DNA from: Pedosphaera sp.
GTDB taxonomy: Bacteria; Verrucomicrobiota; Verrucomicrobiia; Limisphaerales; SIBH01
Direction: 5' to 3'
Assembly (NCBI GenBank): GCA_031414955.1
Contig: JANOQV010000292.1
Coordinates: 1-62,241 of the forward strand
DNA: 62,241 bases
Positions 39,457-61,951 of this stretch are shown in pieces. Position numbers and translations under genes: made by a program. The notes below the pieces were generated by a model. That model saw only the letters and a program-made list of their open reading frames with translations. It was not told the DNA's origin and ran no database searches. Numbering within the stretch: the first letter of the stretch is position 1; each line of letters begins with the position of its first letter.

Positions 39457-39487
39457 AATGAACTATCCGTGAGCGGCTGAACGCCGT

Positions 39488-41830: not shown

Positions 41831-41852
41831 GCACCCAGCGATGAACGTTGGG

Positions 41853-43076: not shown

Positions 43077-43094
43077 GGAATTCTCCTTGTTGGT

Positions 43095-43657: not shown

Positions 43658-43716
43658 AGACTAGATGTTCCGCCGGTCTTCGCTATGGGGTGTAAACCTC
43701 TGGGGTGAAACCCTAC
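43658..43716 (-). promoter_or_regulatory. Conserved box (tandem) plus -10-like TAGTCT
   Basis: TATGGGGTGTAAACCTCTGGGGTGAAACCCTAC at 43684-43716. Confidence 0.75.
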
Positions 43717-43799
43717 CCCGACGGTTCAGGCATTTCCGGGTTGAGCGAAGTGCAGGCTCCTCGCGGCCCCGTTCCTTGAGGGACCGCCCTCAACCACAA

Positions 43800-44909
43800 T
43801 CAACTCGTCACCAACTCACTGACGGCCGATAGGGACGGCACGCGATCACAGATGATTTTAACCGCCACCAGAATGGGCACGGACAACAAAGCTCCGGGCA
43901 CGCCCCAAAGCCAGGTCCAGAAAATCAGCGAGACGAAGATCATCACCGGGTTGAGCGTGAAGCGCCGGCCGAGCAGGACCGGCGTGATGAGGTTCGCTTC
44001 CAGCAGATGCAGCAGCAGATACCAGGCGGGCGGCAGAAGCCCTTTCCACAAGGTGTCGAAAGTGAGCAGGCCGACGCCGGCCAGCAGGGTGACTCCGGCC
44101 ACGGGTCCGAAGTAGGGAACAAAATTCAGCAGCGCGACCAGCATTCCCCACATGGCGGCATTGGGCACGCCCATGAAATAGAGGCCGCCGCTCACGACGA
44201 TGCCCAGGCCGAGGTTGATGAGCGACACCGAGAACAGGTAATTGGAAATGTTTTGCTGAATCTCGTGGCTGATTTCGACCGCGCGCTTCTTGTCGCTCAA
44301 GGTCGGCATTACGTGGACGAGCTTCTGCAGGAACATGTCGCCCGAGGCGAGCAACAGATAGAGCAGCACCAGCATCTCGCCCACGCCGATGAGAAAAGTC
44401 CCGGTCCAATTGATGAAGGCGCTGGGGACACGGCTGGCCTTGACCTCGACGGTCGTTGTTTTCGTTTGCTCCTCCTCGGTCGCGCCCAGGTTGTTGACCG
44501 CCGCCGCCGCCTGGCTGAAGCGCGCGACGCGCGGGAAAATTTTCTGAGCGCGCTGCCTCAACTCGGTCATGTGTTGCGGCGCGTCGTTCATCCAGGCCAG
44601 CGCGGGCTGGCCGAGTTGGAAGAAGCCAATGGTGACACCGGCGACCAGCAGCGAAATCACCACCGCCGCAGAGACGGCGGGCCGAATGCGGCAGTAAGAC
44701 AACCAGCGGATGAGCGGTTTCAAGATCATCGCCGCTACGCAAGCCACGAAGATTGGCAGGACCACGGGGCGCGCGAAGTAAAGAAAGGCCATCACGCCCA
44801 AAGCGATCAAGACGCCCTGCACATGGGGCGTGCGATGCGCCGCCAGTGTGATCGCGGGAACGGCCAATGGCTCGGGAATCGGCACCGCATCCTGTTCGTC
44901 ATCCTTCAT
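43800..44909 (-). CDS. AI-2E family transporter
   Basis: Polytopic; LLNFVPYFGP, EANLITPVLLG, WGVPGALLSVP. Confidence 0.93.
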   Translation of the reverse strand: MKDDEQDAVPIPEPLAVPAITLAAHRTPHVQGVLIALGVMAFLYFARPVVLPIFVACVAAMILKPLIRWLSYCRIRPAVSAAVVISLLVAGVTIGFFQLGQPALAWMNDAPQHMTELRQRAQKIFPRVARFSQAAAAVNNLGATEEEQTKTTTVEVKASRVPSAFINWTGTFLIGVGEMLVLLYLLLASGDMFLQKLVHVMPTLSDKKRAVEISHEIQQNISNYLFSVSLINLGLGIVVSGGLYFMGVPNAAMWGMLVALLNFVPYFGPVAGVTLLAGVGLLTFDTLWKGLLPPAWYLLLHLLEANLITPVLLGRRFTLNPVMIFVSLIFWTWLWGVPGALLSVPILVAVKIICDRVPSLSAVSELVTS

Positions 44910-45042
44910 TCCGTCTCTCGTGAATATTGCCTCCGGTTCGGGTTACGGTGGGTGGGATTATGTCGCGAACTGCGCGAATGTTCCGGCTCTGAATGACTGC
45001 GGACGGGTGCGCTTTCGCACCCGCCCACAGCGATTGCTCGGA

Positions 45043-45825
45043 TCAGTTGGCCGCCACCGGGGCGGCGATGGTCATGTCGTTGTTCACGCTGATGACACCT
45101 TCAATGTTCGTGACCAGCTTGGTGACCAGACTTTTTTCGGCGGCGTTCTTGGCGATGCCGCTGACTGTCACGACTCCATCCGCCGTCGAGACCTTCGTCT
45201 TCAGGGCGCTGGTTGAGCGGCGCGACATCAAGGCCGACTTGACGTGGGCCGTGATGGAGGCGTCGTCCATCTTCTCGCCGAGCGTTTCAGTCGCCTTGGC
45301 TGGAGCCTTGTCGATCGTCATTTCATTCTTCACTTCCTTCACACCTTCCACGTCCTTGGCGTATTCGGTGGTCAGATCCTTTTGGGCCAGGCTCGAGGCT
45401 TCACCGGTCAGAGTGACAATCCCGCCCCTCACATTCACGTCCGTCCGCGTGGCTCGCACGTTGCGATGGAACAGCAGCGCGCTCTTCACCTTCGTGCCGA
45501 CCCAGGCGTCCGAATGCTCGGCGGGGCCGTCGCCTTTAATCTTCAACTGGTTGTCCACGCTCTTGACGCCGGGCAGGCTTTCCACCGTGTCCTGGGCCAG
45601 GGATTTGTGGGAGCTGTCCGCGACCGTGCCGGTCAGGGTGACGGCACCATTCTTGGACTCAGCCTTGATGGAATCGTCCTTGAGGTGGGTTTTGAACACG
45701 TAGGACTTTTTGGCGGATGACTCAATGCGGTCGTCCGTGTCGTTGGCGCGAAGCGATGTGCTGCTGACTAACAGGGCGCTCGTGGCCGCGAGCAGCGCGA
45801 GCGAACCGATGGATTTGATTTTCAT
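45043..45825 (-). CDS. OsmY-like triple-BON-domain protein
   Basis: Signal peptide; three G-x-VT-(L/V)-(T/S)-G...GV-x-x-V-x-N repeats. Confidence 0.92.
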   Translation of the reverse strand: MKIKSIGSLALLAATSALLVSSTSLRANDTDDRIESSAKKSYVFKTHLKDDSIKAESKNGAVTLTGTVADSSHKSLAQDTVESLPGVKSVDNQLKIKGDGPAEHSDAWVGTKVKSALLFHRNVRATRTDVNVRGGIVTLTGEASSLAQKDLTTEYAKDVEGVKEVKNEMTIDKAPAKATETLGEKMDDASITAHVKSALMSRRSTSALKTKVSTADGVVTVSGIAKNAAEKSLVTKLVTNIEGVISVNNDMTIAAPVAAN

Positions 45826-45876
45826 TATGCTTTTTTCTTTCGATGGTTGTGTTGTTTGTTTTTCAACACGAGAGCC

Positions 45877-45936
45877 ACGGTAGGTGGCGGAAGGGCGCGG
45901 CGATATGGGGTGTAAGCCTATGGGGTGTAACCCTAC
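45877..45936 (-). promoter_or_regulatory. Conserved box (tandem) plus -10-like TACCGT
   Basis: TATGGGGTGTAAGCCTATGGGGTGTAACCCTAC at 45904-45936. Confidence 0.78.
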
Positions 45937-46060
45937 TGGCTGACCATGCCCTTGCCCTTCAATGACTGCTGCCGCAGGCCGCACCGAATCCCCCCTCCAC
46001 ACGCGGGAAGCAATGGCAGCCCACGGTTCCTCGCGTATGGGTTCGGCTTCCTGCGTTCCA

Positions 46061-46176
46061 TCAAGTCCATCGAATCGTCACACTGCCATCGAGGCGCTTG
46101 GATAAATCGACCGGGGCATTTCGTAACCCAGGCTGCACCCGACGCGCACAGTGAGGTTCAGAGGAGTCCAGTTCAT
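46061..46176 (-). pseudogene. Possible internally deleted transglutaminase-family gene
   Basis: MNWTPLNLTVRVGCSLGYE joined out of frame to APVDLSKRLDGSVTIRWT*; family call is from recall only. Confidence 0.45.
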
Positions 46177-46247
46177 GGTGTTAAATGCTTTTGTTCCGCG
46201 CGGGCGGCGCCAAGACAATATTGTCCCCTCCGTCAGCCGACCCGTGC

Positions 46248-46292
46248 AGAATACGAGGCAAGCCGGCCCGGTAACATGGGGTGTTACCCGAC
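46248..46292 (-). promoter_or_regulatory. Conserved box plus -10-like TATTCT
   Basis: CATGGGGTGTTACCCGAC at 46275-46292. Confidence 0.7.
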
Positions 46293-46311
46293 CGGGCCTG
46301 GCCCCTGCGGG

Positions 46312-49113
46312 CTACGCCGGTATGGCGCGCGGATCGCGACCCCGGCCAAAGCGAATCCACTTTTCCAATTCTACCGCGACAAAAGCCAGGGCCGCGACAC
46401 CCACGATGCGCAGCCAGGACACGGCGTCGATGGGCGCGGTGTGGAAGAGTTTGTTCATCAGCGGCAGGTAGGTGAAGAGGAGTTGCGCGCCCGACATCAC
46501 CAGCGCGCCGATGAGCGTCCAGCGGTTGGTGAACATCCCGATGGAGAAGATGGAATGGTGGAGTGAACGACAATTGAAGAGATAAATCATCTGCACCATG
46601 ACGATGGTGTTGACGGCGACGGTGCGCGCCACCGCCAGGCCAGCCTGCTCAACGCGCAGTTCCCAAAGAAACAATCCCAGCGCGCCGCCGAGCAGGATAA
46701 GCGACACCAGCCCGGTGCGCATGATGAGGGGAAAGGTGAGCAACGGCTGCTTCGGGGCGCGCGGCGGGCGGCTCATCACGTCGCGCTCCTTCGGCTCGAA
46801 GGCCAGTGACAGTCCGAGCAGCGTGTCGGTCAGGTTGATCCAGAGCAGTTGCAGCGGCAGCAGCGGCAGCGGCAGTCCGAGCACGATGGCACTCAAGAGC
46901 GTCAGCTCTTCGCCGAGGTTGGTCGGAATGATCCAGACGATGAACTTGGTCAGGTTGTCGAACACGCCGCGACCTTCCTCCACGGCGGCCTGGATGGAGG
47001 CGAAGTTGTCGTCGGTGAGAATCATCGCCGCCGCGCCCTTGGCCACGTCCGTGCCGCTGATGCCCATGGCCACGCCGATGTCGGCCTGCTTGAGCGCGGG
47101 CGCGTCGTTCACGCCGTCGCCGGTCATCGCGACGACGTGACCGCGAGACTGAAGCGCCTTCACGAGCCGGAGCTTTTGTTCGGGCGCGACCCGGGCGAAG
47201 ACAGCGGTGCGTTCCGCGACTTCGGGAAGTTCTTCGTCCGGGACTTTCTCCAATTCGCGGCCGGAGAGGGCGGGCAACTCACTTGTAGCAGCCGACGTAA
47301 GGAGGCTATGATTTCCTTCGCTCGCAGCACCAGGAGTTTTGAGCCTCCTCACGTCGGCTGCTACCAGCGGAGAATGATCGAGTCCAATCTGCCGCGCGAT
47401 GGCGCGGGCGGTGACGAGGTGGTCGCCGGTGATCATCTTCACGGCGATGCCGGCGCGCTGGCACTGGCGCACGGAGGCGATGGCGGCAGGGCGCGGAGGG
47501 TCCATCATCGCCTGCAAGCCGAGGAAGGTGAGACCGGCGGCGACGTGGGCGTGCTCGAGTTTGGCGTGACCCGCATCCACATGCCGGCGGGCCAGGGCCA
47601 GCACGCGCAGTCCGCGCGCGGCCATCGTTTCAGCGGCGCGATGCACGGCGTCCTTGTCGAGCGCGACCAGCGCATTACTTTCGCCGAGCGCGTCAGTGCA
47701 GCGTTCGAGCAGTCGTTCGAGCGCGCCGACTTTGTAGATGACACGGCCTTTGTTCGACTCGTGCAGCGTGGCGCGGAACATGTGCTCGGACTCGAACGGA
47801 ATCGTGTCCAGCACCGGCGTCTGGCTGTGCGCATCGGCGCGAATGACTCCGCCTTTTTCAGCGGCGACGAGCAGCGCGGCTTCGGTGGGGTCGCCCTGCA
47901 CCTTGAGCCGTCCGTCTTCGCGCACGAGCTGCGACTCGTTGCAGAGCACGCCAGCGAGCAAACACTCGGCGAGCGCGGGATGTTCGGACACCTTCACGGA
48001 CGCGCCATCGAGGCGAAGTTCACCCTTGGGTTCGTAGCCGCCACCCGTGACTTCGTAGAGTTTTCCGCCCGCGAAAATTTCCTGCACGGTCATCTGGTTC
48101 TCGGTCAGCGTGCCGGTCTTGTCCGAACAAATGACGGTGGTGCTGCCGAGCGTTTCAACGGCGGGCAGCTTGCGGATGATGGCCTGCCGCTTCGCCATCC
48201 GGGACACGCCGATGGCAAGGACAATGGTGACAGCGGCGGGCAATCCCTCGGGAATCGCGCCCACCGCCAGCGCCACGGCGGCCATGAACATCTCGACCGG
48301 CTTTTCGCCACGCGCGACGCCGAGCGCGAACGTGGCCGCCGCCAGACCGACGATGACCCAGAGCACCAGCTTGCTAAACTGCGCGATTTTCTTCGTCAAC
48401 GGCGTGGACAATTCGACCGCGCTGGAAATGAGATGCGAGATGCGCCCCGTCTCGGTCTGGTCGCCGATGGCCCACACCACGCCTTCGGCCTGGCCGCTGG
48501 TGATGAGCGTACCGGTGTAGGTGAGATTTTTTCGCTCGGCGAGAATGGTGTCCAGCGCGAGCGCGTCGGCGTGCTTGGCCACCGGCAGCGATTCGCCGGT
48601 CAACGCCGATTCATCCGCGTGCAGATTGCGGACATGGAAGAGCCGCAAGTCGGCCGGCACGCGGTCCCCGGATTGAAGCAGCACCACATCGCCCGGCACG
48701 AGTTGTTCCGAGTGGATGCGCAGTTTGCGACCGTCGCGGCGCACGTTGGTTTCAGTGGCGACCATCTTGGCGAGCGCCTCGATGGCTTTCTCCGCCTTGG
48801 CCTCCTGAAGAAAACCGACAATGGCATTGATGATCACGACGCCGAAGATGACCGACGAATCCACCCACTCACCGAGGAACGCCGTCACGCCGACCGCCAC
48901 GAGCAAGATGTAAACGAGCGGCTGGTTGAACTGCTTGAGAAACTTCAGCCACGCCGGAGTGCCGCGCCGCGCAGTGACGCGGTTCGGGCCGTGTTCCTTC
49001 TGGCGGCGACGCACTTCATCCCCCGACAGTCCGGTGGACAAGTTCACTTCCAGCAACTTCACCAACTCATCGTGGTGGACCTGATGCCAGTGCGTGGCTG
49101 CCGCCGGTTTCAT
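46312..49113 (-). CDS. P2-type cation-transporting ATPase
   Basis: [47 protein letters not shown]. Confidence 0.97.
47285..47364. repeat. REP-like palindrome in frame within the ATPase gene
   Basis: GTAGCAGCCGACGTAAGGAGGCT ... AGCCTCCTCACGTCGGCTGCTAC, 22/23 paired. Confidence 0.88.
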
Positions 49114-49715
49114 GGCTCGGCCAATTCGTCTTCGAGCATCGCCACCTGCTCGCGAACGTAATCGCCATAACCCCAGCCGATGTGGCTGGCCAACTGCGCC
49201 ACGCGCGCCAGCCGGTCACGGCACTGAGGATAACTCTCCCGCCCCTCGACCCGGAGCAGCCCGGCCAGTTCGTTCAACACCGACTCCAGGCTGCTGTAGT
49301 ACGCTTCGTTGATGTCGCCAAACTGCTGCGTGAACTCCGTGCCGTTCTCCACGTAAGTGAGCATCAGGTCCATCGTGCCCGCGACGTGGCCCGTGGCCTT
49401 GCGATAATCGCGGATGGCTTTGCGTGCCTCCGCCAGCTTGAGCTTGCCGAAACCGCGCGCCGGAAAGAACTGCTCCACGATTTTGCGCCGATACCTTTCC
49501 AGCGCATCGCCGCCGGCGCTCTCCGCGTCAAATCGCGCCCGCAAGAAATCCCGGTTCTCCGGCGACGCGTCGTGCAAATCCTTGACCAGCGCGAGGAGCG
49601 CGGGCTTGGGCCAGTCGGCGATCTGTCGGCGGATGCCGGACCAGCCGGTCACGCGTTTCACGGTTAGAGTTTCAGCGTTCACGCGTGACAGATTTGGGGA
49701 AGGCAAGTCCGTCAT
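49110..49715 (-). CDS. Conserved helical hypothetical protein (DUF6155-like)
   Basis: LKLAEARKAIRDYRK, YVENGTEFTQQFGDINEAYY, IGWGYGD; abuts the upstream gene and overlaps the ATPase start. Confidence 0.75.
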   Translation of the reverse strand: MTDLPSPNLSRVNAETLTVKRVTGWSGIRRQIADWPKPALLALVKDLHDASPENRDFLRARFDAESAGGDALERYRRKIVEQFFPARGFGKLKLAEARKAIRDYRKATGHVAGTMDLMLTYVENGTEFTQQFGDINEAYYSSLESVLNELAGLLRVEGRESYPQCRDRLARVAQLASHIGWGYGDYVREQVAMLEDELAEP

Positions 49716-51062
49716 CTAACTCCACTCTGCGAGCAGGCCGTTCAACTTCCCGGAAATCAGCGCCTGTTCCGCCTGTGCGATGTCGAAGACTCCAGCGAGC
49801 AGATGGTCGTTCGTCATCGGCTCGTTGAACGCGAAGACGGCGTTGTAGAGGTAGTGCAGTTGCCGGTCAGCGATGCGCCAATGCGCTCCGTCTTGCACGA
49901 ACGCCGGCCCTTTACCCCACCGGATGTCGGCGAGTTTGTCGAAGTAGTCACCGCGCAGGAACAGCGGGTCGAGATTTGTGGCGAGAGCGCCACGAACCGG
50001 GAGATTGGCACCGTCGTCGGCGTAGTAGGCACCGAATTTCAAAAGCTGGTAAGTGCCCTTCTTGATGTCATCCGTGCGACCCAATCCGGGCTTGGTCTTG
50101 TTGGAATCAATTTCGTCGCCCCAGCCGTTGACCAGATACGCGAGAACTTCGTCGCGTTCGTTTCGCTTCGTCTTGTGGACGGAGTAAGCGTAGAACAATT
50201 CCAGCCAGGCCGAAAAGTACTCGAGCAGGTTGCTGCTTTGCCCGAAACTTTTTGCCGCCGCCGCGAAAGGCCAGTTGACGTCAGTGCCGCGCGGAAGAGC
50301 GAATCGAGTCGGGCGATGCGGGAGAAACAGGAACAGCCTTTCGTAGTCCACCGGAACATCCACGAGACTGTGCTGGCGAAACTCTTTTCGCCCATCGGCT
50401 GCTTCCTTCATCAGCGGTTCGGCCAGTTCCATCCCGATGGGGAACGTGACCATCGGCGACGCTTTGACTTCCAACAGCAGGAGAAGATTGTTGCGAAAGG
50501 CAACGACATCCACGTCATGCGATTGTTTGGTGATGACCGCCAGTGAGAGCGGATTTGCTGCCGCGCTCATCACCAACTTCAAGAGCATCGCCATCGCGGT
50601 CGTAGTGATCTCGCCGATGTGATGGCTGGAAGGTTTGTGCTGCGCGCCGGACAGGCGTTTCTCCAGCCCAAGGTCGAGGCAACAAATCGGGCACTGTTTG
50701 AGGAAGGAGTAATAAACGGTTGGGCGAGGTTCGCCGTGGCGATGGCAGTAAATCCATTTGGAGTTCACCAGCCTGCCGTGGACGTATTCCACGTTGCAGG
50801 CCAGGTCGAACAGCGCCGCGAGAAACAAGTGGAAGCGGCGTCCGCCGTCCGCTGCGCGTTTGAGAAATGCGTCACTGGTCCAAAGCGGGTCGGAGAGCGA
50901 AGCTGAGTAACAACGCAACGAGTTCGACAGAAGGCGGGCCATGCCGCCGCCGCAGATATACTCGTTCTGAGTCAGGTCGGCTTCGGCGAGACGTTCGAGA
51001 TCGGCAATCTTCGCCTTGGTTTGGAGATGCGAGTAGTCCGGGAACAGAAGCTTGTTGGGCAT
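49716..51062 (-). CDS. Putative type II restriction endonuclease
   Basis: DVDVV...LEVKASP PD-(D/E)xK-like motif; CxxH and CxxC; 13 bp downstream of a C5 methyltransferase. Confidence 0.7.
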   Translation of the reverse strand: MPNKLLFPDYSHLQTKAKIADLERLAEADLTQNEYICGGGMARLLSNSLRCYSASLSDPLWTSDAFLKRAADGGRRFHLFLAALFDLACNVEYVHGRLVNSKWIYCHRHGEPRPTVYYSFLKQCPICCLDLGLEKRLSGAQHKPSSHHIGEITTTAMAMLLKLVMSAAANPLSLAVITKQSHDVDVVAFRNNLLLLLEVKASPMVTFPIGMELAEPLMKEAADGRKEFRQHSLVDVPVDYERLFLFLPHRPTRFALPRGTDVNWPFAAAAKSFGQSSNLLEYFSAWLELFYAYSVHKTKRNERDEVLAYLVNGWGDEIDSNKTKPGLGRTDDIKKGTYQLLKFGAYYADDGANLPVRGALATNLDPLFLRGDYFDKLADIRWGKGPAFVQDGAHWRIADRQLHYLYNAVFAFNEPMTNDHLLAGVFDIAQAEQALISGKLNGLLAEWS

Positions 51063-51075
51063 AAGCAGACAAGTC

Positions 51076-52356
51076 TCAGGCCAAGGCCAACTGCTCTTGA
51101 ACTCCCGACGTGTTGCGCTGCTTCGTTCGGTTGGGGATCAACTGCTCAATGCTGTGCTCGACAACCCACCGAATGGCGGGCACGCATACCGCGTCGCCGA
51201 AGGCAAAACGAATGTCTGTCTCTGTGCCGATGAGTTGAAAATTCGGCGCGCTCTCGGGGAGACAGACCCCCTGAAGTCGGGCGGATTCCAAAGCTGTCAG
51301 TCGCCGTCCTCTGAGGACTCCATCTTCGATGGTGATGACATACTGAGTCGAAGAACCGCCGCGTGGCGTGCGCAGGCAACTGGCCAAACCGTCAAACCGG
51401 ACGTTGAAAATCTGCTCACGCTTGCGCCTGCGGCGCAGGCGGCGGACAGCAGTGAACACATGTCTTCTGCCGCCACCGAGCAAGGATTCCAAACGGATTT
51501 TGTGGTCGTGCTCCACCAGTGACCAAAAATAATCAGTCTGCTCCTTGTCCCACCAGACCGTGTTGTCCTCTGGGACACGCTCCATGATGTCGCGCAGTGA
51601 AATCTCGCGCGAAGGCAGAGGAGGAAAATCAAAGAAGAACCAAGGCAGGCCGGGGTTCTTGCGGTACGCTTCCGCGAGCTTGTGCCGACGCAAGTGATCG
51701 TTTGGAAACGCACGCCGAGGCAAAGAGTGGCGTTCCAAGTCCACAGCCACAATGAAGACGCGGTTGCGCGACTGCGGAGTGAAATGCTTGGCGTCGATTT
51801 GCAGGACATCGAATCCGTAACCCAAACCAGCCATCGTTTTCAGAATCTCTTCGAGCGCCGAGCCATTGTGGATCGAAAGCAAATTGGGGACGTTCTCAAC
51901 CAGCAAGAACTCCGGCTTCCTTCCGCCGTCCGCCAATGCCGCCACCTTGTCCAAAAAGATTCTCACGAGACTGCTGTGCTCGCCATTCAGTCCCTGCCGG
52001 TTTCCCGCCTGGCTTAAGTCGATGCAGGGAAACGAAGCGGTCACGAGGCGTGGTGTCGGATAGTCGAGCAAATCCAGGAGCCTCACATCACGCTCATCAA
52101 ACGGCACGTCCGGGAAATTCGCTTTGTAGGCGCGCACCTTGCGAGGGTCGTTGTCGTTGGCGAGCACTGCCTGCCAGCCCAGCGGACTCAGCGCCTCATG
52201 CACCAGACCGATCCCCGCGAACAATTCAATGAACGTCTTCCCGCGCAACGCAGATGACGGCGGTGGTTCACAGGTCAGCGCGCTACCGTAAGGGGGCAAG
52301 TCGCCGTCGTGGAGATGCGCTGGCTTGCTCGCCTTTCGATTTGCTGGGTAACGCAT
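51076..52356 (-). CDS. DNA (cytosine-5)-methyltransferase
   Basis: Motifs ELFAGIG (I), SFPC (IV), ENV (VI), QSRNRVF (VIII), ARLQG (IX), FGDAV (X); start codon uncertain. Confidence 0.95.
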   Translation of the reverse strand: MRYPANRKASKPAHLHDGDLPPYGSALTCEPPPSSALRGKTFIELFAGIGLVHEALSPLGWQAVLANDNDPRKVRAYKANFPDVPFDERDVRLLDLLDYPTPRLVTASFPCIDLSQAGNRQGLNGEHSSLVRIFLDKVAALADGGRKPEFLLVENVPNLLSIHNGSALEEILKTMAGLGYGFDVLQIDAKHFTPQSRNRVFIVAVDLERHSLPRRAFPNDHLRRHKLAEAYRKNPGLPWFFFDFPPLPSREISLRDIMERVPEDNTVWWDKEQTDYFWSLVEHDHKIRLESLLGGGRRHVFTAVRRLRRRRKREQIFNVRFDGLASCLRTPRGGSSTQYVITIEDGVLRGRRLTALESARLQGVCLPESAPNFQLIGTETDIRFAFGDAVCVPAIRWVVEHSIEQLIPNRTKQRNTSGVQEQLALA

Positions 52357-52534
52357 GATTTCGTTCGGTCGCTTGCTAATTGAATTTGCATTACGAAGAA
52401 AAGTGAGGCGAGACATTTGTTCCCAATGCCAACACGCGCGCACGCCAGCTTGATTCTTGAAATCTTGGTTCGCCATGCAGTGTGGCGGGTTCACGCTGGA
52501 AGCCGAGGGTGACATCAGCGGTTCACCTTATGGC

Positions 52535-53098
52535 CTACGGTTTGATCGCCACCTTGAGCACGCCATCCGAGCGGTCGCCGAAGAGCTGGTAGGCTTGGGG
52601 AATTTCATCCAGCGAGAACCGGTGGGTGATGAGCGGCGTGGGATCGAAGCGCCCGGATTGCACCAGAGTCAGCAGCCGCCGCATCCGCTCTTTGCCGCCG
52701 GGACAAAGCGTGGTGACGATGCGGTGATCGCCGAGTCCGGCGGAGAAGGCGTCGTAGGGCATTTGCAGTTTGCCGGAATAAACGCCGAGGCTCGACAGCG
52801 TGCCGCCCGGTCGCAGGCAACGCAGCGCGCTTGCAAAAGTCTGCTGCGTGCCCAGGGCTTCGATGGCAACATCCGCGCCGCCGCCGGTCAGTCGTTTGAT
52901 TTCGGCCAGCACATCCACGGCGCGGTAGTCGAGCACCACGTTTGCACCCATGCGTCGCGCCATCGCGAGCCGGGTGTCGTCGCCATCAATGCCAATGATG
53001 AGCGAGGCGCCCATTAACTTCGCGCCGGTGGTGGCGCACAAACCAATCGGTCCTTGGGCGAAGATCACGACGGAATCACCGAGGCGAACCGGGGCGGC
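52535..53098 (-). pseudogene. N-terminally truncated zinc-dependent alcohol dehydrogenase
   Basis: VRLGDSVVIFAQGPIGL...DVAIEALG...THRFSLDEI...VLKVAI; in-frame stop just upstream; catalytic GHE domain absent. Confidence 0.85.
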
Positions 53099-53274: not shown

Positions 53275-53471
53275 AATGTCTTCCTGTTTGGCGGCAGGCC
53301 AGCCAGCAATTGCGCTTCCGCTTCCAGCCAATGCTCCAGATGGCGGCCAGTAGGCTCGCCTTGATCTAAAAAGATTCGGTAGGCCATCTCAGCCACCTGA
53401 TCTCGCGTGGGTGCGGGTGTCTCCAGGCGGGCAGATTTTTTGCCATGGAGAGAAGGAGGTGTTTTTTGCAT
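53271..53471 (-). CDS. DUF2934-like protein
   Basis: DQVAEMAYRIFLDQGEPTGRHLEHWLEAEAQL. Confidence 0.88.
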   Translation of the reverse strand: MQKTPPSLHGKKSARLETPAPTRDQVAEMAYRIFLDQGEPTGRHLEHWLEAEAQLLAGLPPNRKTL

Positions 53472-53477
53472 GACGAG

Positions 53478-53524
53478 ACGATGCTCCAAGATCGGCTTGC
53501 GAGCTATGGGGGCTTCACCCCATG
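53478..53524 (-). promoter_or_regulatory. Conserved box plus -10-like CATCGT
   Basis: TATGGGGGCTTCACCCCATG at 53505-53524. Confidence 0.65.
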
Positions 53525-53618
53525 AGAGAGTTTGGGAACGCGCGAGCTCGCGGACTTTAGTTTCGGAAGCATCTCATCGTGCTGCTTCAGTGCGCAGCAG
53601 CGGAAAGACGAAGACGCC

Positions 53619-53933
53619 CTACTTGGAGGGATCGTGATCAGACGGGCGGAGAACCGTCCAGAGGGAGACGGCCACCTTGGCCCCCTTCAGGGCCATATCG
53701 AACCAGGAAAATTTAGCGCTCCGGGCGGCGGCCCGTTCGCGCCGGAACGCCGAGACTGCCGTCACAAGCAAGGCCACCGCTGATGCCAGCTCACTGACTG
53801 ACTTCAGACGCGCACGGAAGGTCCGAACGCCCCCTGTCATCGCCTGCCATTCCTCGATCAGTTGCGCGCGATTGATTTCGCTTTCTGCGACCAGCAACTC
53901 CTTCTGCAATTGCAATCGGTTCACGCGAGGCAT
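53619..53933 (-). CDS. YqjK-like protein
   Basis: QKELLVAESEINRAQL; third gene of the DUF883/YqjE cluster. Confidence 0.7.
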   Translation of the reverse strand: MPRVNRLQLQKELLVAESEINRAQLIEEWQAMTGGVRTFRARLKSVSELASAVALLVTAVSAFRRERAAARSAKFSWFDMALKGAKVAVSLWTVLRPSDHDPSK

Positions 53934-54310
53934 TTTTCGAGACATGCGCGGTCCTTTCTCAATTGATCGAACGTGGCGGAAAAAGATTTCCAGTGGCCCT
54001 GGAGAATGGAAAAGCGGCGGTAGAGAAGCACGGAGGCTGCGCCATAGAGCGTGGTCAACGTGAGCAGCACTCCGACCGGCGAGAGCGACCACAGCAACAC
54101 CACCACGGCGGCAGTCAGCATGAGGATGGCGAGAAAGGCAAACATCGCCACGCCCAGCGCCAGCAAAATGGCGTGCAGGAGGCGCTCGCGTTCCTCCTGC
54201 ACTTCCACCATCAACAATTCCAACCGGTTTTCACCAATGGTCAGCAGTCGCCGCGCAAAATCTTTCGACGGCGCGGCCAGGGGCGAGGAGTTGAGGATGG
54301 TTGTCTCCAC
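53921..54310 (-). CDS. YqjE / holin-like membrane protein
   Basis: NRLELLMVEVQEERER, two TM segments, FSATFDQLRKDR. Confidence 0.85.
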   Translation of the reverse strand: METTILNSSPLAAPSKDFARRLLTIGENRLELLMVEVQEERERLLHAILLALGVAMFAFLAILMLTAAVVVLLWSLSPVGVLLTLTTLYGAASVLLYRRFSILQGHWKSFSATFDQLRKDRACLEKCLA

Positions 54311-54315
54311 AAATT

Positions 54316-54618
54316 TCAGTCGTTGCGCGAGCAACGGCGCCCGAGCAGATAACCGACCAGCGCGCCGATCCCGACGCCGATGGCGATGGCTTGATAGGGA
54401 TGCTCATGCACGGCCTCGTCAGCCGCCTTGGCCCCCTGAATCGCTTTGTCGCGGACATCGCCCGCGATTTCCCGGCCGCGTTCCAGCGCGGCGGCGAGGC
54501 GCTTGCGGGCTTCCCCGACTTTTTCCCCGGCCACGTCGGCGGTGGCGGCCATCAAGGCCCGTGCGTCCTCGGCCAGTTGGCCCATGTCATTGCTCAGTGC
54601 TTTTGTTTCTTTGCTCAT
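54316..54618 (-). CDS. DUF883 (ElaB/YqjD) family protein
   Basis: AADEAVHEHPYQAIAIGVGIGALVGYLLGRR C-terminal anchor. Confidence 0.93.
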   Translation of the reverse strand: MSKETKALSNDMGQLAEDARALMAATADVAGEKVGEARKRLAAALERGREIAGDVRDKAIQGAKAADEAVHEHPYQAIAIGVGIGALVGYLLGRRCSRND

Positions 54619-54721
54619 AATCTCTGGTTTCTATTGGTTGGTGTCTTCAGTGGTAAATTTTCCGCGGCGCCGAGGTGGAACTGCTTCGGTCAGGCGGGAC
54701 GGCCAGGCCGGGTCTTGTTAG

Positions 54722-54985
54722 TTACACGGTGCCAGCCGGGGCCATGATTCCGCGCACGACCGCTTCCGCCTCCAGCCAGACCTGCGATTTGATCAGCCAT
54801 ATTTTTGCGTCCTGCAAATTCTTCTCCTTGTCGCTGGACTCGCCGGTCAGCGCTTCCTGGGACGAATCCTGAGCCGCGGTTTCACAAGTCTTCGCATGCT
54901 GTTGCAGCGCCTCAATGATGCTGGTCAGTGGAGAAGCCGTGACTGCGGACTCGGCACCGGTGTTTTGAAATGTTTCCTGCCTCAT
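54722..54985 (-). CDS. Small hypothetical protein
   Basis: 87 aa helical ORF between a conserved box and the DUF883 gene. Confidence 0.6.
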   Translation of the reverse strand: MRQETFQNTGAESAVTASPLTSIIEALQQHAKTCETAAQDSSQEALTGESSDKEKNLQDAKIWLIKSQVWLEAEAVVRGIMAPAGTV

Positions 54986-55057
54986 AATGATTTTTCTTGG
55001 TGGAAAAGCATCGGCTCTCTCACGGTGCAAGGTTCGGCGAAATCGCCGTGTCTGTTC

Positions 55058-55075
55058 TATGGGGTCTTTCCCTAC
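55058..55075 (-). promoter_or_regulatory. Conserved box
   Basis: TATGGGGTCTTTCCCTAC; no clear -10 at the usual spacing. Confidence 0.65.
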
Positions 55076-55160
55076 CGGCGAATCTCATCCAAGGATTTTC
55101 CCAGTGCGGTGAGGATCACCCTAGTCGCGGCCTCCTTCATTGCGACCTATCGGGGGGGGT

Positions 55161-55859
55161 ATGCACAAATCCACCAAAACACTGGTTGTTGCAGCCGCCG
55201 CGAGCGAAACGAATTTTCGGGTCGCAATCACTCAATCCCGCACCGGCACCCGCCTGCTGCGTGAAATAAGCGAGGTTCGGCCGGAGCGGGACGGTGCTCC
55301 CTTGAGGCACGTTTCCAGGCTGATCGTGCTGACGCGATTCCTGAGCCTGGCCTTCCTCCTCATTGCGCTCAGCCACCCGTTGAGCGTCCTCGGCGTGGTG
55401 GGGCCGGTCAGTGTCTCGCTGGCCTGGGATCGCAATCCAGAGGCCGATGTGGTCGGCTACCGCATTTACTACGGCCTGAGCAGCCGGCAATACACCAACA
55501 GCATTTACGTGGGCAACCTGACGGCGGGCACGGTTCCCGGTCTCTCCAACGGCGTTCCCTACTTCTTCGCCATGACCGCGCTCGACGCCACGGGACTTGA
55601 GAGCGATTACTCGAGCGAAGTCGCGGTGACGCCCAACGGTGGCTTCAGCTTGAAGGTCCGCATCCCCGCCAACCGCCAGTCCGTGCTGACCGTGACCGGC
55701 CCCGCCGGTCAGGCGTATGATTTTCTCGCTTCCACGAATTTCACGACCTGGGCCACCTTGGGCAGCGCCACGGCCGGCACGAATGGTCTCGCGACCTACA
55801 CGGATACCGCGGCGCCGGGCTATCGTATCCGGTATTATCGCGCGCGGCAGAAACCATGA
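55161..55859 (+). CDS. Fibronectin type III domain protein, copy 2
   Basis: Colinear, same-length paralog of 37641-38339. Confidence 0.85.
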   Translation: MHKSTKTLVVAAAASETNFRVAITQSRTGTRLLREISEVRPERDGAPLRHVSRLIVLTRFLSLAFLLIALSHPLSVLGVVGPVSVSLAWDRNPEADVVGYRIYYGLSSRQYTNSIYVGNLTAGTVPGLSNGVPYFFAMTALDATGLESDYSSEVAVTPNGGFSLKVRIPANRQSVLTVTGPAGQAYDFLASTNFTTWATLGSATAGTNGLATYTDTAAPGYRIRYYRARQKP

Positions 55860-55930
55860 AGCTGATCACCAAGCGCTGAATCTCCGAAGGTCAAAGCCGT
55901 TGTCACCCGGTGCCGGAATCCACCGGACGC

Positions 55931-55973
55931 CGGGTTAGACCCCATATCGAAGTCTGCGCCGAACGCGTAGCGT
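55931..55973 (+). promoter_or_regulatory. Conserved box in inverted orientation plus -10-like TAGCGT
   Basis: CGGGTTAGACCCCATATC upstream of a plus-strand gene. Confidence 0.7.
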
Positions 55974-56000
55974 CATTTCAGAAATCAAAATAGAATCAAT

Positions 56001-56186
56001 ATGAAAACCATCCTGTTCTGCGCTGCCGTCCTCACTCTCCTCACGACCACGGGATGTCTGGTCACCGAAGGCCGATCCCACCGGGGCCGGGGACATGGAC
56101 ACGGCCATGGACCGGCCGTGCTCGTTCCCGCTCCGGTCGTGGTGGTGCCCGCGCCGGTGATTATCGTGCCGGTCCGCCCTCGCTGA
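56001..56186 (+). CDS. Small His/Gly- and Val/Pro-rich lipoprotein
   Basis: TTGC lipobox; HRGRGHGHGHG, VPAPVVVVPAPV. Confidence 0.75.
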   Translation: MKTILFCAAVLTLLTTTGCLVTEGRSHRGRGHGHGHGPAVLVPAPVVVVPAPVIIVPVRPR

Positions 56187-56235
56187 TGGAATGTTCGTCG
56201 CGATGAATTCATGCCGCGCCTACGGATACAGGTCG

Positions 56236-57660: not shown

Positions 57661-57756
57661 AAGTCATCTCATCAATGGCGGAGAGCGCAGGCGATCACAA
57701 CGGCGGGTTGTTCATGGGGGCAATGAATCCCTGCCGCTCCTGCCAAGCCTGGTCGA

Positions 57757-59718
57757 TCAGGGTTTGGGTTCCTTGGCTTTCGTCAGCGCGGACATGATGG
57801 CCTTTTGCACCGTCGGATTAGCCAGGTTCCCCAAGTGCCCGCCCTTTTTGAAGACGGTCATTTGATCGGGGTCGAAGGTGGCATCGAGCCAGTCGAGGTC
57901 GGCGGGCGGCAGGAGAAAATCGTTCTGGTTGACGATGATGCGGACGGTGCGGTTGGTGCGCAGCGCGGTTTCGTAAGTCCGCAGATCGCCGGCCTTGGCG
58001 AGCGCTTCCGCCGCGGGCGCGGGCAGGCCCCGGGTCTCGTAATAGGGAGCGGCAAACTTCTCCACGTAGTCCCGATAGGAATACTGCTGGATTTCGTTAT
58101 AGGACGGGTTGCGCCGGAAACTCCGGAGCGGGTGTTGCAGGACGCCCAGGTTGCGTCGCTGCTGACTGCTGAAAATCATGTCGCGCAGGATGAAGCGGAA
58201 AGTCAGGCCGACGAGAAACTTGGACTCGATGGCGTTGAAGGGCAGTGAAGAGTCCGGCGTGACCTTGCTCTTGCTCATGGCCGCTACCTTCAGAAAAGTG
58301 TTGTGGATGTTGTCGGTCCGGTTCGTGACCGGCCAGGAAAGAGGAGCCTGATAATATTCGTCCAGCTTGGTCACGCCCTGGATGAAGCGCACCGGAGTGT
58401 TGATGGCCACGTAACGATCAAATTGAACCAGCGACGCCTGGTTGGTCGGAGTGGTCGCGGCGATGAACAACGAGTGAAGCGCGCCCATGGAATAGCCCAT
58501 CAAGGCCTTGTCGCCCAACTGGTCCGGATACATTTCCCGCAAACGGCGATCCACTTCGGTCAACGCGACATGCACGTCGTGGCCGTCCACCGGCAGATAG
58601 GCGGGCAGCGCCGCGATGGAAGCGTTTTCCATGAACTCGGTGTTGAAGGCGCTGCTGAGGCACACGGCCGAGTAGCCATTGCTGTAAACCAATTCGGCCA
58701 GCGCGATGGATGGCTGGGCCAGGCGATGCGAACCCAAGCCGGGAAGGATGTAAACCACCGGCGCTTTTTGTGGCTGCAACCAGTAGGTGAACTTGAGCTT
58801 TTTATCCGTGGACGGAATCAGGACCGAGCGGGTTTTGCCGACTCCCGGGAAATCGGGATCCTTGTAGGTGAAGAAGACGGAGGCGAGCGTTTCCAACGAG
58901 GCTTCGTCCTGGTTTCCCTTCACCTGGAAATCGGCCACCCGGTTCTCCCGGGCGAAGGTCCAGGCGTACTGGACGAGGGCATACGAATCCATTTCGGCCT
59001 GACTGAAGCGCACATACTCATTCACGTTGTCGCTCAAGTCGTTGTACATCACCGCGTAGTTGAAGTAAGTGTAGGGGCCGAGCCAGGTCAGGGGATTGGA
59101 CGCGACGATTTCATAGGGGGCAATGTAGAGGAGCGGATTGGCCGCGGTGTCGGCGGCAAAGCCGAGCGTGTCCCGTTCATTGCTGGGGCCCAAGATGGGC
59201 AGCATGATGAAACACTGCGGCTTCCAGCCCCACTGGCCGAAGGTCTGGCCGAAGTCCGCGTCTGATTTCGGAATCTTCCATTTGGTCCCCACGTCGAAAA
59301 ACCCGACGACGCCGACGGTGCTGTTGCAAAGGAACCGGTAGGATTCATCGCGCGCGCCGCTCCACTTTCCCTGGAGCAGATTATTGATCGCCCGGCCCGG
59401 GTAGGTGAGGTTCCGGCCAAAATTTCCGATGCCGGTGCGGACCGGTTTCACGACCACGAACCGATAAACTTTGCTGGTCGGCTGGACGACCCCCGCCATA
59501 AGCCCCTTGTTGAAACCCCACACCGCCCGGTTAAAAGGTTCAAGGGGATCGGGGACGGATTCAGGGAGAACGACGACGTTCGTGTCCGGCGGACGGGTGG
59601 CAACAGCGGCCGGTTCCTGACTGTGAGCGAACAACGCGAGGAATACCGTGAGAACCACGATTGACACCCCCGCCATTCTCCGGCGACGGGTTGGGCCGGT
59701 GGCGACAGGCAATTTCAC
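57757..59718 (-). CDS. MlaA/VacJ domain fused to an alpha/beta hydrolase
   Basis: DPLEPFNRAVWGFN, DFGQTFGQWG, LPILGPSNERD; then PGLGS, GYSMGA, NDFL, GGHLG. Confidence 0.9.
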   Translation of the reverse strand: MKLPVATGPTRRRRMAGVSIVVLTVFLALFAHSQEPAAVATRPPDTNVVVLPESVPDPLEPFNRAVWGFNKGLMAGVVQPTSKVYRFVVVKPVRTGIGNFGRNLTYPGRAINNLLQGKWSGARDESYRFLCNSTVGVVGFFDVGTKWKIPKSDADFGQTFGQWGWKPQCFIMLPILGPSNERDTLGFAADTAANPLLYIAPYEIVASNPLTWLGPYTYFNYAVMYNDLSDNVNEYVRFSQAEMDSYALVQYAWTFARENRVADFQVKGNQDEASLETLASVFFTYKDPDFPGVGKTRSVLIPSTDKKLKFTYWLQPQKAPVVYILPGLGSHRLAQPSIALAELVYSNGYSAVCLSSAFNTEFMENASIAALPAYLPVDGHDVHVALTEVDRRLREMYPDQLGDKALMGYSMGALHSLFIAATTPTNQASLVQFDRYVAINTPVRFIQGVTKLDEYYQAPLSWPVTNRTDNIHNTFLKVAAMSKSKVTPDSSLPFNAIESKFLVGLTFRFILRDMIFSSQQRRNLGVLQHPLRSFRRNPSYNEIQQYSYRDYVEKFAAPYYETRGLPAPAAEALAKAGDLRTYETALRTNRTVRIIVNQNDFLLPPADLDWLDATFDPDQMTVFKKGGHLGNLANPTVQKAIMSALTKAKEPKP

Positions 59719-59825
59719 GACAGAGTGGGCTCAGGCAACGGGCCGTGGGCGGCGCAGCACAGCGATAACGTGTGCAACGCAGCCAGGCATATCCAAATGA
59801 GAGCCATGCCTCCCAGAATAGTCAT
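59715..59825 (-). CDS. Small single-TM peptide
   Basis: MTILGGMALIWICLAALHTLSLCCAAHGPLPEPTLS; GTGA overlap with the MlaA fusion. Confidence 0.45.
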   Translation of the reverse strand: MTILGGMALIWICLAALHTLSLCCAAHGPLPEPTLS

Positions 59826-59884
59826 AGATGAACTCCCTGATCTTCCTCTCCATCCTGGAGACTGTGGGTGGCTTTCATGGCTGG

Positions 59885-59930
59885 AGCCTGGGTCCAAAGA
59901 CAACGCAGCGATATGGGGTGTTTCCCCCAA
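59885..59930 (-). promoter_or_regulatory. Conserved box plus -10-like CAGGCT
   Basis: TATGGGGTGTTTCCCCCAA at 59912-59930. Confidence 0.68.
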
Positions 59931-59976
59931 TCCTGAATCGAAGAGGAGCATGGGTGGGAATACGGAGATGCCACCT

Positions 59977-60471
59977 TCAGACCACGGTCCGCGTTTTCCG
60001 GGTTTGAAAATCTTCCAGCACCAGGAAGCCAGGCACGCTGCCGCGAGCCGGGCCGTCGGCCAGTTCCACCTCGGACTCGAAGCGCACGGGGAAGACACGC
60101 TGCGCATCCTTGCCCAGCAACTCGTAGCTCTGGGCCAGACGCTTCGCGTCGGGTGCGGCCGTGCCACACCAAAGGCGAACCTGCCCACGAGCCGTGACGA
60201 TGATGGGCTGCATGGTGCCAAGTCCTTCGTGTCCACGGACGGGTGGTGTGATATAGCCGGGGAGCTTTGTGCCATCGGCGAGGGTAAACGCGGCGCGCAC
60301 CACGAACATGCGCCCGGCCGGATTCAGCAGACCGGATTCCGTGTGCGGGCGGACGGTGGATTCGTCCTGACCACTTTGGCCCTCGGCATCCAGCCTGAAT
60401 TCCCAGATGGGAAACTGGCGGAGATCATCCATGGTCAGCTCGTAAACCTGTTTTCCGATTCGGGCACTCAT
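59977..60471 (-). CDS. Hypothetical protein
   Basis: 164 aa; LRQFPIWEF, QDESTVRP, FTLADGT; follows rpmI. Confidence 0.75.
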   Translation of the reverse strand: MSARIGKQVYELTMDDLRQFPIWEFRLDAEGQSGQDESTVRPHTESGLLNPAGRMFVVRAAFTLADGTKLPGYITPPVRGHEGLGTMQPIIVTARGQVRLWCGTAAPDAKRLAQSYELLGKDAQRVFPVRFESEVELADGPARGSVPGFLVLEDFQTRKTRTVV

Positions 60472-60489
60472 GGGCACGTTACACTGGGC

Positions 60490-60699
60490 TTAATGGCTGA
60501 AGGGCAGGTTCTGGGTGATCCGGTACGCATCGGTGGACGACACCTGGCGGTCCTTGCCCAACGAACGGCGGCGGTTGGAGTTCTTGCCCTGGAGCAAATG
60601 GCGTTTGCCCGCGCCGCGGCGCATGATTTTCCCGGAGCCGGTGATCTTGAAACGCTTGGCCACTGATTTCCTGGTTTTGATTCCCTTGGGTCTTCTCAT
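60490..60699 (-). CDS. rpmI: 50S ribosomal protein L35
   Basis: KTRKSVAKRFKITGSGKIMRRGAGKRHLL. Confidence 0.95.
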   Translation of the reverse strand: MRRPKGIKTRKSVAKRFKITGSGKIMRRGAGKRHLLQGKNSNRRRSLGKDRQVSSTDAYRITQNLPFSH

Positions 60700-60708
60700 A
60701 AAGAAAGG

Positions 60709-60939
60709 TCAGTTTTCTCTGAAAGTAATTTTGACCAGCGCACCATGTTCGGTCAGGCGAATCGCGCACAGCTCGGTGGGGGCGCGCTGAATGAGATTCT
60801 GCCGCTCCAAGGCCTCGATCTCGCCGGGGGAGATGCGCGGCGTGCTCCAATAACGATGCACATCGCGCAGGCAGAAACGAAGTTCGCCCCGTGACATGAC
60901 GGCGGGACGGGGCGTGGCGACAGCCTGGTTGCGCTTCAT
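60709..60939 (-). CDS. Small hypothetical protein, winged-helix-like
   Basis: IEALERQNLIQR...IRLTEHG; 9 bp upstream of rpmI. Confidence 0.55.
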   Translation of the reverse strand: MKRNQAVATPRPAVMSRGELRFCLRDVHRYWSTPRISPGEIEALERQNLIQRAPTELCAIRLTEHGALVKITFREN

Positions 60940-61085
60940 GATGTTGTCTTCCTGCCGCTCCACTTTTCGGCGCTCGTGTCTTGAAACCGCGTGCTGGACC
61001 CGACCAGTTGAGCCGGGTCCGTATCGGACCCGGCCTCAACCCCCACTTCCGAAAACCATCGGGCAAGACATGCTGGCAGGGGACG

Positions 61086-61130
61086 AGCCTGGCTTCTGGG
61101 CCAGACTCGCGCTATGGGGTGTAACCCTAC
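61086..61130 (-). promoter_or_regulatory. Conserved box plus -10-like CAGGCT
   Basis: TATGGGGTGTAACCCTAC at 61113-61130, identical to 45919-45936. Confidence 0.75.
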
Positions 61131-61173
61131 CCAGCCTGGTCTGATCCGCGATCGACCGGCCCAATCGCGCGGT

Positions 61174-61737
61174 TCAGAAAGCGATGCGCAGGCCGAGCCG
61201 GGCGAGTCCGTAGCATTTGGTTTCTTCCGGCACCACCAGACGAGCGTCAAGGAACACGCCCACGTGCGGAGTGAAACGGTATTCCATGCCGGCGCCAAAC
61301 TGGCCGAACCACGCTTCGATCCGGTCGAACTGGCGGCCACCGCCGCCAAAGGCGTAGGGAGCGAACCCGCTTTCGCCCAGGGGGAGGCGCAGAATCAAGT
61401 TGGCTGAAGCGCTGTCGATGAAGGCGCTGGTGGTGTTCTCAGAATAAACGTCGGCCCCGACGCCGAGGTGGCGGTTGAAAAAATAGCTCACCCCAAGCCC
61501 GGCTCCCAGTTCGCCGTCCTGCCGGATTCTCGAAGTGGACGGGTGATTGATGGTGTATTTCCCAATCGAACCCGTCCCGAACACATCCACCGAAAGTTCG
61601 TGGGCCCGATAGTGGTCGCGGGGAGCATTATTCGTCCCTGGATCGTCCCCGACTTTTTCCGCACCCCACGCCGGCCTGGCCACCAGCATCAGGATGGTTC
61701 CTCCGACTAGTATTCCGTGTTTCATTATTTTTTTCAT
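61174..61737 (-). CDS. Small outer-membrane beta-barrel protein
   Basis: Signal peptide; amphipathic strands GAGLGVSYFF, APYAFGGGG, GAGMEYRF; terminal LRIAF. Confidence 0.88.
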   Translation of the reverse strand: MKKIMKHGILVGGTILMLVARPAWGAEKVGDDPGTNNAPRDHYRAHELSVDVFGTGSIGKYTINHPSTSRIRQDGELGAGLGVSYFFNRHLGVGADVYSENTTSAFIDSASANLILRLPLGESGFAPYAFGGGGRQFDRIEAWFGQFGAGMEYRFTPHVGVFLDARLVVPEETKCYGLARLGLRIAF

Positions 61738-61744
61738 GGCGGCC

Positions 61745-61787
61745 ATGTTACCGGCACGCCGTCGCTCGCTATGGGGTGAAACCCTGC
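61745..61787 (-). promoter_or_regulatory. Conserved box plus -10-like TAACAT
   Basis: TATGGGGTGAAACCCTGC at 61770-61787; -10 ends 7 nt before the ATG. Confidence 0.72.
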
Positions 61788-61905
61788 CGCACTGGAGGGC
61801 AGCTCTCCTTGGGCACGGCCCAACCGCCCGCCAGGAGCGGCTGGATTTTGCCGGACGGAACGAGCGGCGCGGGCGCTTCAGCCGCAGCCGGCGGCAATTC
61901 TTCCA

Positions 61906-61951
61906 ATGGAGTGTTCACCCCATAGCCCCGTCCATGAAAGCGCCGGACAGT
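61906..61951 (+). promoter_or_regulatory. Conserved box, inverted (divergent promoter)
   Basis: ATGGAGTGTTCACCCCATAGC, then 19 nt, then GACAGT. Confidence 0.55.

Follow-up and report, generated by a model that had tools for sequence, protein, structure and literature searches.

Between positions 43,658 and 61,951 of contig JANOQV010000292.1, from the verrucomicrobial assembly GCA_031414955.1 (Pedosphaera sp.), one short oriented DNA box recurs in front of one transcription unit after another, which raises the question of what reads it. The window analysed here is this whole contig (C292), 62,241 nucleotides (nt) long, in a genome of 6.55 Mb and 313 contigs. The answer that we consider quite probable is that the box is bound by a dimeric response regulator of the NarL/FixJ family, encoded on another contig of the same genome (C71), which would thereby activate a set of general-stress genes. 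This regulator is proposed as the reader because the box, its spacing, its intergenic position, the families of its targets, and its co-occurrence and linkage with the regulator could all be established. No description of the motif or of the regulon was found in the full-text literature, subscription journals and supplements lying outside this coverage, and searches with the motif strings returned nothing relevant. The predicted regulon appears thus to be undescribed, and its mechanism, a NarL-type activator at about −43.5, would be conventional.

The box is present in ten promoter regions between 43.7 and 61.9 kb, in 12 copies including two tandems of 15-bp period. All ten places and both tandems had been picked out by an earlier sequence-only reading, which also reported no clear copy in the first 37 kb; indeed, the best score over window positions 1–43000 is 11.3 bits. 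The consensus then given, TATGGGG-N5-CCC(T/C)AC, is exact at only three of the 12 copies, which are real and better split into two forms. The asymmetric N3 form reads GTAGGGT-WWC-ACCCCAT-RGC, and the near-palindromic N4 form, found at 53505, 59912 and 61906, reads TGGGGT-N4-ACCCCAT. The right half ACCCCAT-RGC is common to both, the left half being GTAGGGT three bases off in N3 and TGGGGT four bases off in N4. The ACCCCAT half lies about 22 nt ahead of a −10 hexamer of the xAxxxT type. Such a hexamer had been said to follow each box at a near-constant distance, and it does start 21–23 nt past CCCCAT in nine of the ten promoters; only the TAACAT of the 61770 box comes one base earlier. The 55058 box, for which no hexamer had been listed, carries GAACCT.

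The same phasing is found in other genomes. When 44 N3 sites from relatives are stacked ungapped, A occupies position 41 and T position 45, each in 35 of 44. Across the N3 sites of the loci examined in other genomes, 231 of 249 have the hexamer at offsets 39–41, against a mean of 33.7 and a maximum of 46 in 200 shuffles. Among the matches listed by a collection scan with the exact pattern, 136 sites have xAxxxT at offset 40 in 100 cases, 41 in 21 and 39 in 12, and 135 of these 136 sites fall outside called genes. For N4 sites, the hexamer is in phase in 36 of 50 with an ATRG flank and in 15 of 33 without it. With the hexamer placed at −12 to −7, the box centre would fall at −43 (N3) or −43.5 (N4), and TRGC would fill the start of a weak −35 element. 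The site is thus an inverted repeat that abuts −35 at a constant distance, as in NarL/FixJ regulons, its position being deduced from the −10 hexamer. According to the accessible parts of the two sources, NarL at yeaR (PMC10853779) and DosR at hspX, which has a suboptimal −35 (PMC13486717), are both centred at −43.5. The phasing to the hexamer supports the earlier suggestion of a putative oriented activator site abutting the −35 element.

How specific is the box within the genome? Matrices built from relatives' sites, applied to the whole genome at a cut-off of at least 18 bits, give 17 strand-hits, 14 of which lie in the 43.7–61.9 kb part of the window, that is, in 0.28% of the genome. The other three fall at two places, on contigs C237 and C102; the box is nearly confined to one island in this genome, and only these two other places carry it. 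The reversed genome gives one match against the 17 (the "reversed" and "complemented" genomes being one and the same control). The motif is far from equally frequent in coding DNA, all 17 strand-hits lying outside called genes in a genome that is 86% coding according to an ad hoc gene caller. With the window-trained matrix, 11 matches reach at least 19 bits, against none in the reversed genome and 0–9 for ten column-shuffled matrices. The relatives' training sites were themselves picked with the window-derived matrix, so that the genome scan is not fully independent and the phasing to the hexamer is the cleanest independent test. At the two outlying places, the C237 box (19615) precedes a 995-aa (amino acid) secreted protein in a polysaccharide cluster, and the C102 box (20242) precedes a small cluster of possible metal-handling genes.

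Beyond this genome, the strict pattern occurs, often clustered, in 22 of 60 relatives (the order sample) and in 24 of 200 phylum genomes, each at least 90% complete. The collection scan returned at least 135 stretches, and the 80 with titles are mostly from Verrucomicrobiota; among the matches listed are at least four Planctomycetota loci, at least six Acidobacteriota loci and a few other labels, as recorded. The notion of a purely local island has thus to be given up, the box recurring as a regulon signal throughout the phylum.

The genome encodes at least eight proteins with a LuxR-type helix-turn-helix (HTH), and one clade, ending in IESSVQLTIV, recurs in box islands. Its member here is a 225-aa protein on C71, made of a receiver (PF00072) and a HTH domain (PF00196). 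The phospho-Asp motif is kept in 120 of 120 homologs, and the recognition helix KT(V/I)EKHR(Q/E) in at least 118 of 119 matched homologs. None of the curated NCBIfam families NarL, NarP, UhpA, UvrY/GacA, RcsB, FixJ, EvgA and MctR scores above its cut-off, the best being MctR with 200.7 against 300, and NarL reaching 138 against 250. The closest solved relatives are VraR, NarL, DesR and DevR (E 4e-27 for DevR).

Co-occurrence of this clade with the box was counted at bit-score cut-offs of 282 and 85, both set after the data had been seen. In the order sample, 19 of the 60 relatives have the regulator at 282 bits or more, and the strict pattern is present in 16 of these 19 vs 6 of the 41 negative ones. 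For two of the three misses (G017 and G030), N4 boxes adjoin the regulator. The phylum sample contains 20 regulator-positive genomes, with at least two sites in nine, one in five and none in six; the corresponding figures for the 180 negative genomes are one, nine and 170. The regulator is found in nine of the ten motif-rich genomes of this sample, usually beside a box, and a site lies within 14 kb of its gene in 12 of the 14 double-positive genomes. Among the six regulator-positive genomes that lack strict sites, G126 and G104 contain sites of at least 20 bits nearby, and G120, G159 and G231 have degenerate in-phase copies, as read by eye. The co-occurrence and adjacency of this clade and the boxes thus point to a NarL/LuxR-type reader, as had been suggested at the outset.

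The position of the regulator gene relative to the window depends on one join. The last 30 nt of the window (62212..62241, plus strand) overlap exactly with the end of C71, within a dispersed hairpin repeat; these 30 nt occur nowhere else in the genome, and joining the two contigs restores one copy of the repeat. Read depth, from one run that may be the source, is 12.6 for the window and 12.0 for C71. The gene order on C71 is kaiC-kaiB-kaiB-PAS kinase-regulator (6258–1724, minus strand), and the regulator's own operon probably continues just past the window end. Provided that the join is correct, a distance of about 380 nt separates the 61906 box from kaiC downstream. This box had been reported, like that at 55931, to precede a plus-strand open reading frame (ORF); the ORF after 61906 begins within the box and has no Pfam match, and the true target is probably to be sought past the end of the contig. 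The repeat itself, of about 185 bp with 31-bp arms, is present at window positions 1–135 and 62102–62241 and on many contigs, where it breaks the assembly; one copy would fall in the kaiC leader.

KaiC scores 720 bits against a cut-off of 408, and the two KaiB-like proteins are under the equivalog cut-off. The kinase next to the regulator contains a PAS domain and resembles MctS/UhpB/NarX, below cut-off; HisKA_3 and HATPase_c domains are found in a related kinase encoded behind kaiB, and also in other neighbours. A HisKA_3 kinase adjacent to the regulator, and KaiC and KaiB encoded with the kinase, were both found. The kaiC/kaiB-kinase-regulator order recurs in seven relatives (G001, G003, G004, G005, G009, G031 and G098), and many regulator loci have no kai genes in the stretch examined. 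In G009, a box heads a co-oriented gene run ending in kaiC/kaiB-kinase-regulator; in G059 it stands ahead of kaiC, and at loci L138 and L093 ahead of the regulator or a HisKA_3 gene. Because boxes stand ahead of such runs, the regulator operon may feed back positively on itself. Only one of the kinase proteins scanned matched RsbU_N, below cut-off (22.3 vs 25.5), some of the ORFs being short N-terminally. A fold likeness described in the accessible part of PMC11372060 suggests a KaiA-like input to the kinase, which is a weak lead given this single match below cut-off.

What does the box control? A tandem box (43658..43716, minus strand, −10 TAGTCT at 43658–43663) heads the 43580 operon, whose target genes (39250..43580, minus strand) encode a sll1863-family lipoprotein, DUF6600, an ice-binding-like protein, BON, lmo0937/DUF5670 and DUF3185. 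The second tandem (45877..45936, minus strand, TACCGT) heads a triple-BON gene (45043–45825) and an AI-2E transporter (43800–44909). Behind the 46275 box (46248..46292, minus strand, TATTCT) there is only a truncated gene remnant of about 30 codons, from 46173, its start matching an ORF of 299 aa found in the island of a relative. The N4-form box at 53478..53522 (minus strand, CATCGT) heads a DUF2934 gene, and the box at 55030..55075 (minus strand, −10-like GAACCT) heads a group at 53619–54985 comprising an 87-aa ORF, a DUF883/ElaB-like gene, Phage_holin_3_6 and a 104-aa ORF. On the plus strand, the box at 55929..55973 (TAGCGT) is followed by a 61-aa ORF, whose start (56001) is lipoprotein-like, and by a pentapeptide-repeat gene. 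Three minus-strand boxes follow: the N4-form one at 59885..59929 (CAGGCT) ahead of an MlaA-domain gene (57757–59718), that at 61086..61130 (CAGGCT) ahead of a 76-aa ORF, rpmI (L35) and a 164-aa ORF, and that at 61745..61787 (TAACAT) ahead of an outer-membrane beta-barrel gene (61174–61746). The last one, of N4 form (61907..61951, plus strand, GACAGT), probably drives the kaiC-kaiB-kaiB-PAS kinase-response regulator genes on C71.

The genes headed by the box in relatives further include those for CsbD, ferritin-like, OsmC, superoxide dismutase (SOD), PRC-barrel and dodecin proteins, CheB/CheR and KaiC. Throughout Verrucomicrobiota, and in some members of Planctomycetota and Acidobacteriota, it stands ahead of the same gene kinds (BON, CsbD, Dps, OsmC, DUF883 and KaiC). 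The stress-type families found behind boxes, here or in relatives, are BON, DUF883, CsbD, ferritin-like, OsmC, SOD, dodecin, sll1863 and lmo0937. The earlier idea of a coordinated stress or dormancy island is thus borne out as regards the families of the targets; their co-regulation is a prediction from gene families only. Beside these targets, the L35 gene behind the 61113 box lies at 60490–60699, and an L35 gene is near a box in G007 too. Passenger genes without a box interrupt the island at 46312–53068. They encode a P-type ATPase, a C5 cytosine methylase and, truncated at the 5' end, an alcohol dehydrogenase. The neighbour of the methylase is a 448-aa protein, possibly a restriction enzyme.

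In the proposed mechanism, the adjacent PAS/HisKA_3 kinase would phosphorylate Asp56 of the regulator, a dimer of which would bind the box centred near −43/−43.5 and abutting the weak −35 (TRGC..). The bound dimer would then recruit a sigma-70-type polymerase, in the manner of NarL at the yeaR promoter and of DosR at hspX. Symmetric N4 boxes could serve two divergent genes, and tandem boxes could hold two dimers. With the kaiC-kaiB-kaiB-kinase-regulator operon probably headed by the 61906 box, the system would be self-amplifying. The input may vary by genome, with KaiBC, CheB/CheR-PAS, weakly RsbU_N-like kinases and, in a sister clade, a stressosome-like operon as candidates. The latter is seen in G105 (L285:3599–8189), where two STAS-like genes, Rsb-like genes and a kinase lie directly before the sister-clade NarL regulator, as read by eye.

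Several observations weigh against the C71 regulator acting in this way. The co-occurrence counts include kin, which are non-independent, and the regulator and boxes share one island, so that linkage alone could give their co-occurrence. The regulator comes without a clear box in G040, where a stop lies inside the match, and in G105, where it belongs to the sister clade. Conversely, the pattern was hit and the regulator not found in G050 (95% complete, six strict sites), G203 (93%, four), G027 (98%, two), G025 (85%, one) and G007 (96%, two sites, with a contig that stops within kaiC), as well as in G022 with five one-mismatch hits. No assembled contig bridged or contradicted the join to C71, which lies within a repeat. 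The genome has four primary-type sigma-70 paralogs, and thus several possible partner sigmas. MlaA, the outer-membrane protein, L35 and the exopolysaccharide (EPS)-cluster gene on C237 are targets that are not classic stress genes. Apart from these points, a cognate kinase was sought in five motif-positive, regulator-negative genomes, and only kinases of other systems were found.

Could another regulator read the box, the C71 protein merely being a target on the same island? The motif-rich G050 and G203 would fit this explanation, as would the fact that the C71 regulator's operon itself stands behind a box. However, these exception genomes are drafts of 110–370 contigs, and no other DNA-binding protein was seen recurring in the islands examined (by eye, with an ad hoc gene caller and no systematic screen); we hold this explanation to be unlikely. 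A particular candidate, singled out by the sequence-only reading, is the receiver-less LuxR/GerE HTH protein encoded at 38375..38920 (minus strand), which has an N-terminal heptad-repeat rod and belongs to a conserved family: the best 120 of 2145 matches are 58–77% identical, none with a receiver annotation. This protein, or receiver-bearing kin, might read the box either by itself or paired with the C71 regulator in a heterodimer, which would account for the asymmetry of the N3 form. It sits at the island's end, its helix KTVEYHRMK resembles that of the C71 regulator, and all six of the 60 relatives with close kin carry boxes. Such kin are nevertheless present in only five of the 22 motif-bearing relatives and in none of the ten motif-rich phylum genomes, many of them N3-rich. 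They stand directly behind an N4 box in G004, G005 and G008, as a target would, and a different box at the neighbouring fn3 gene tracks the protein better. Its candidacy as box reader is thus abandoned as quite unlikely, and the protein is likely a target or modulator. The heterodimer as cause of the N3/N4 asymmetry was rejected in view of N3-rich genomes without the second LuxR clade.

The strict orientation and spacing of the box and the several sigma-70 paralogs of the genome are also what would be expected if the box were a promoter element of an alternative sigma factor, as had also been suggested, in the form of either an extended −35 or a sigma-32-like −10; CCCCAT equals the sigma-32 −10 core. 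Yet a separate xAxxxT lies 22 nt downstream of the box, positions −9 to −1 upstream of the collection-scan sites hold at most 0.22 bits, with no conserved sigma-32 −35 there, and a profile scan of this genome gave no RpoS, SigB/F/G or RpoH above cut-off. Moreover, where N4 boxes separate divergent genes they score on either strand, which fits a dimeric factor and not a sigma. Such bidirectional palindromes, with nothing conserved upstream, make a sigma element very unlikely. A sigma-32 (RpoH) promoter in particular was rejected, as neither a conserved −35 13–15 nt ahead of CCCCAT nor an RpoH gene was found. Finally, the box can form a 6-bp stem, some copies closely follow a stop codon, and other hairpin repeats exist in the genome, as if it were a dispersed repeat, a mobile-element scar, or an RNA hairpin or terminator without promoter role. 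But its flanks are unrelated save for the phased −10, no U-tract follows it, Rfam gives no match in 37000–62241, and the same gene families stand behind it across phyla, which leaves this explanation extremely improbable.

The different box mentioned above, AGGAWCACCCTAG, has an upstream partner and lies ahead of both fn3 genes of the window, as well as ahead of the fn3 gene beside the 38375–38920 kin in five of six relatives; two further one-mismatch hits do not exceed the control level. The 38375–38920 protein might bind at this second box, an assignment limited by the fact that gene and box move together as one cassette. The fn3-domain gene is duplicated together with its promoter, at 37571–38341 and 55089–55861 (81% identical, the sole two copies in the genome), and both copies carry this second conserved box, AGGRTTTTCCYAG..AGGAWCACCCTAG. 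A direct duplication, of 273 bp (81%), comprises the glmS 3' end and DUF3185 at 37182–37454 and 39179–39451; it flanks the fn3 and receiver-less LuxR genes as a scar at the island's left edge. Farther left, at 28643–34920, a 1993-aa RHS-repeat protein comes before a 99-aa ORF, and the two may form a polymorphic toxin-immunity pair.

A broader picture, which we regard as possible and rather doubtful, would be that a single self-amplifying NarL-type switch governs the general stress response in bacteria of the Planctomycetes-Verrucomicrobia-Chlamydiae (PVC) group, which are without RpoS/SigB. A KaiA-less KaiC/KaiB timer encoded in the operon of the kinase would gate it here, other lineages would use CheB/CheR, RsbU_N-like or stressosome inputs, and the induced receiver-less LuxR protein would be a brake or second-wave regulator. 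If this were true, a Kai system outside cyanobacteria would have in the box its direct read-out on DNA. Soils and sediments harbour abundant Verrucomicrobia, and no paper was found, within the same literature coverage, on how these bacteria switch on stress protection. The present analysis yields a motif, a regulator and a kinase named as candidates, and a list of targets, which together would make up a testable general stress switch for this little-studied group. The motif also gives a functional context to many small DUF proteins, and through the operon link to KaiC/KaiB one may ask what Kai proteins control outside cyanobacteria.

Known systems resemble this predicted regulon in part. Its target gene families are those of the RpoS/SigB general stress regulons, to which ElaB/YqjD, OsmY/BON, CsbD, Dps and OsmC belong; control appears here to rest instead on a response regulator. 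The DosR/DevR regulon of M. tuberculosis shares with it a G/C-tract palindrome and clustered stress targets, the GGG–CCC distance being about 8 in the DosR box and 5–6 nt in this box. The kinase of the DosR system is of the GAF-heme type, whereas a PAS kinase is found here; box and targets also differ, and identity is low. Membership in the DosR regulon itself was rejected, the box differing from the DosR consensus and no USP (universal stress protein)/HspX Pfam family being found among the 39 window ORFs scanned. The box may resemble the Staphylococcus NreC site. DosR is alike in promoter architecture, with a NarL-family regulator, a box centre at about −43.5 and the suboptimal −35 at hspX (PMC13486717, accessible part). 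At yeaR, the accessible part of PMC10853779 describes a NarL dimer centred at −43.5, just upstream of −35, with a 7-2-7 geometry and a contact to the polymerase alpha subunit's C-terminal domain (alphaCTD). The placement is alike here, and the adjacent kinase is of the NarX/UhpB kind, as in the NarL system. In contrast, NarL reads its site with Lys188, Val189 and Lys192 (PMC10853779), where the aligned residues are here Glu, Lys and Gln, the regulator stays under the NarL cut-off, and no nitrate genes are among the targets. On the input side, there is a likeness in gene content to a Pseudomonas module of KaiC, histidine kinase and response regulator, which the accessible part of its description (10.1101/2022.01.26.477890) links with resistance to osmotic and oxidative stress; the system described here differs from that account by its two KaiB genes, its HisKA_3 kinase, its DNA-binding NarL-type regulator and its predicted operator.

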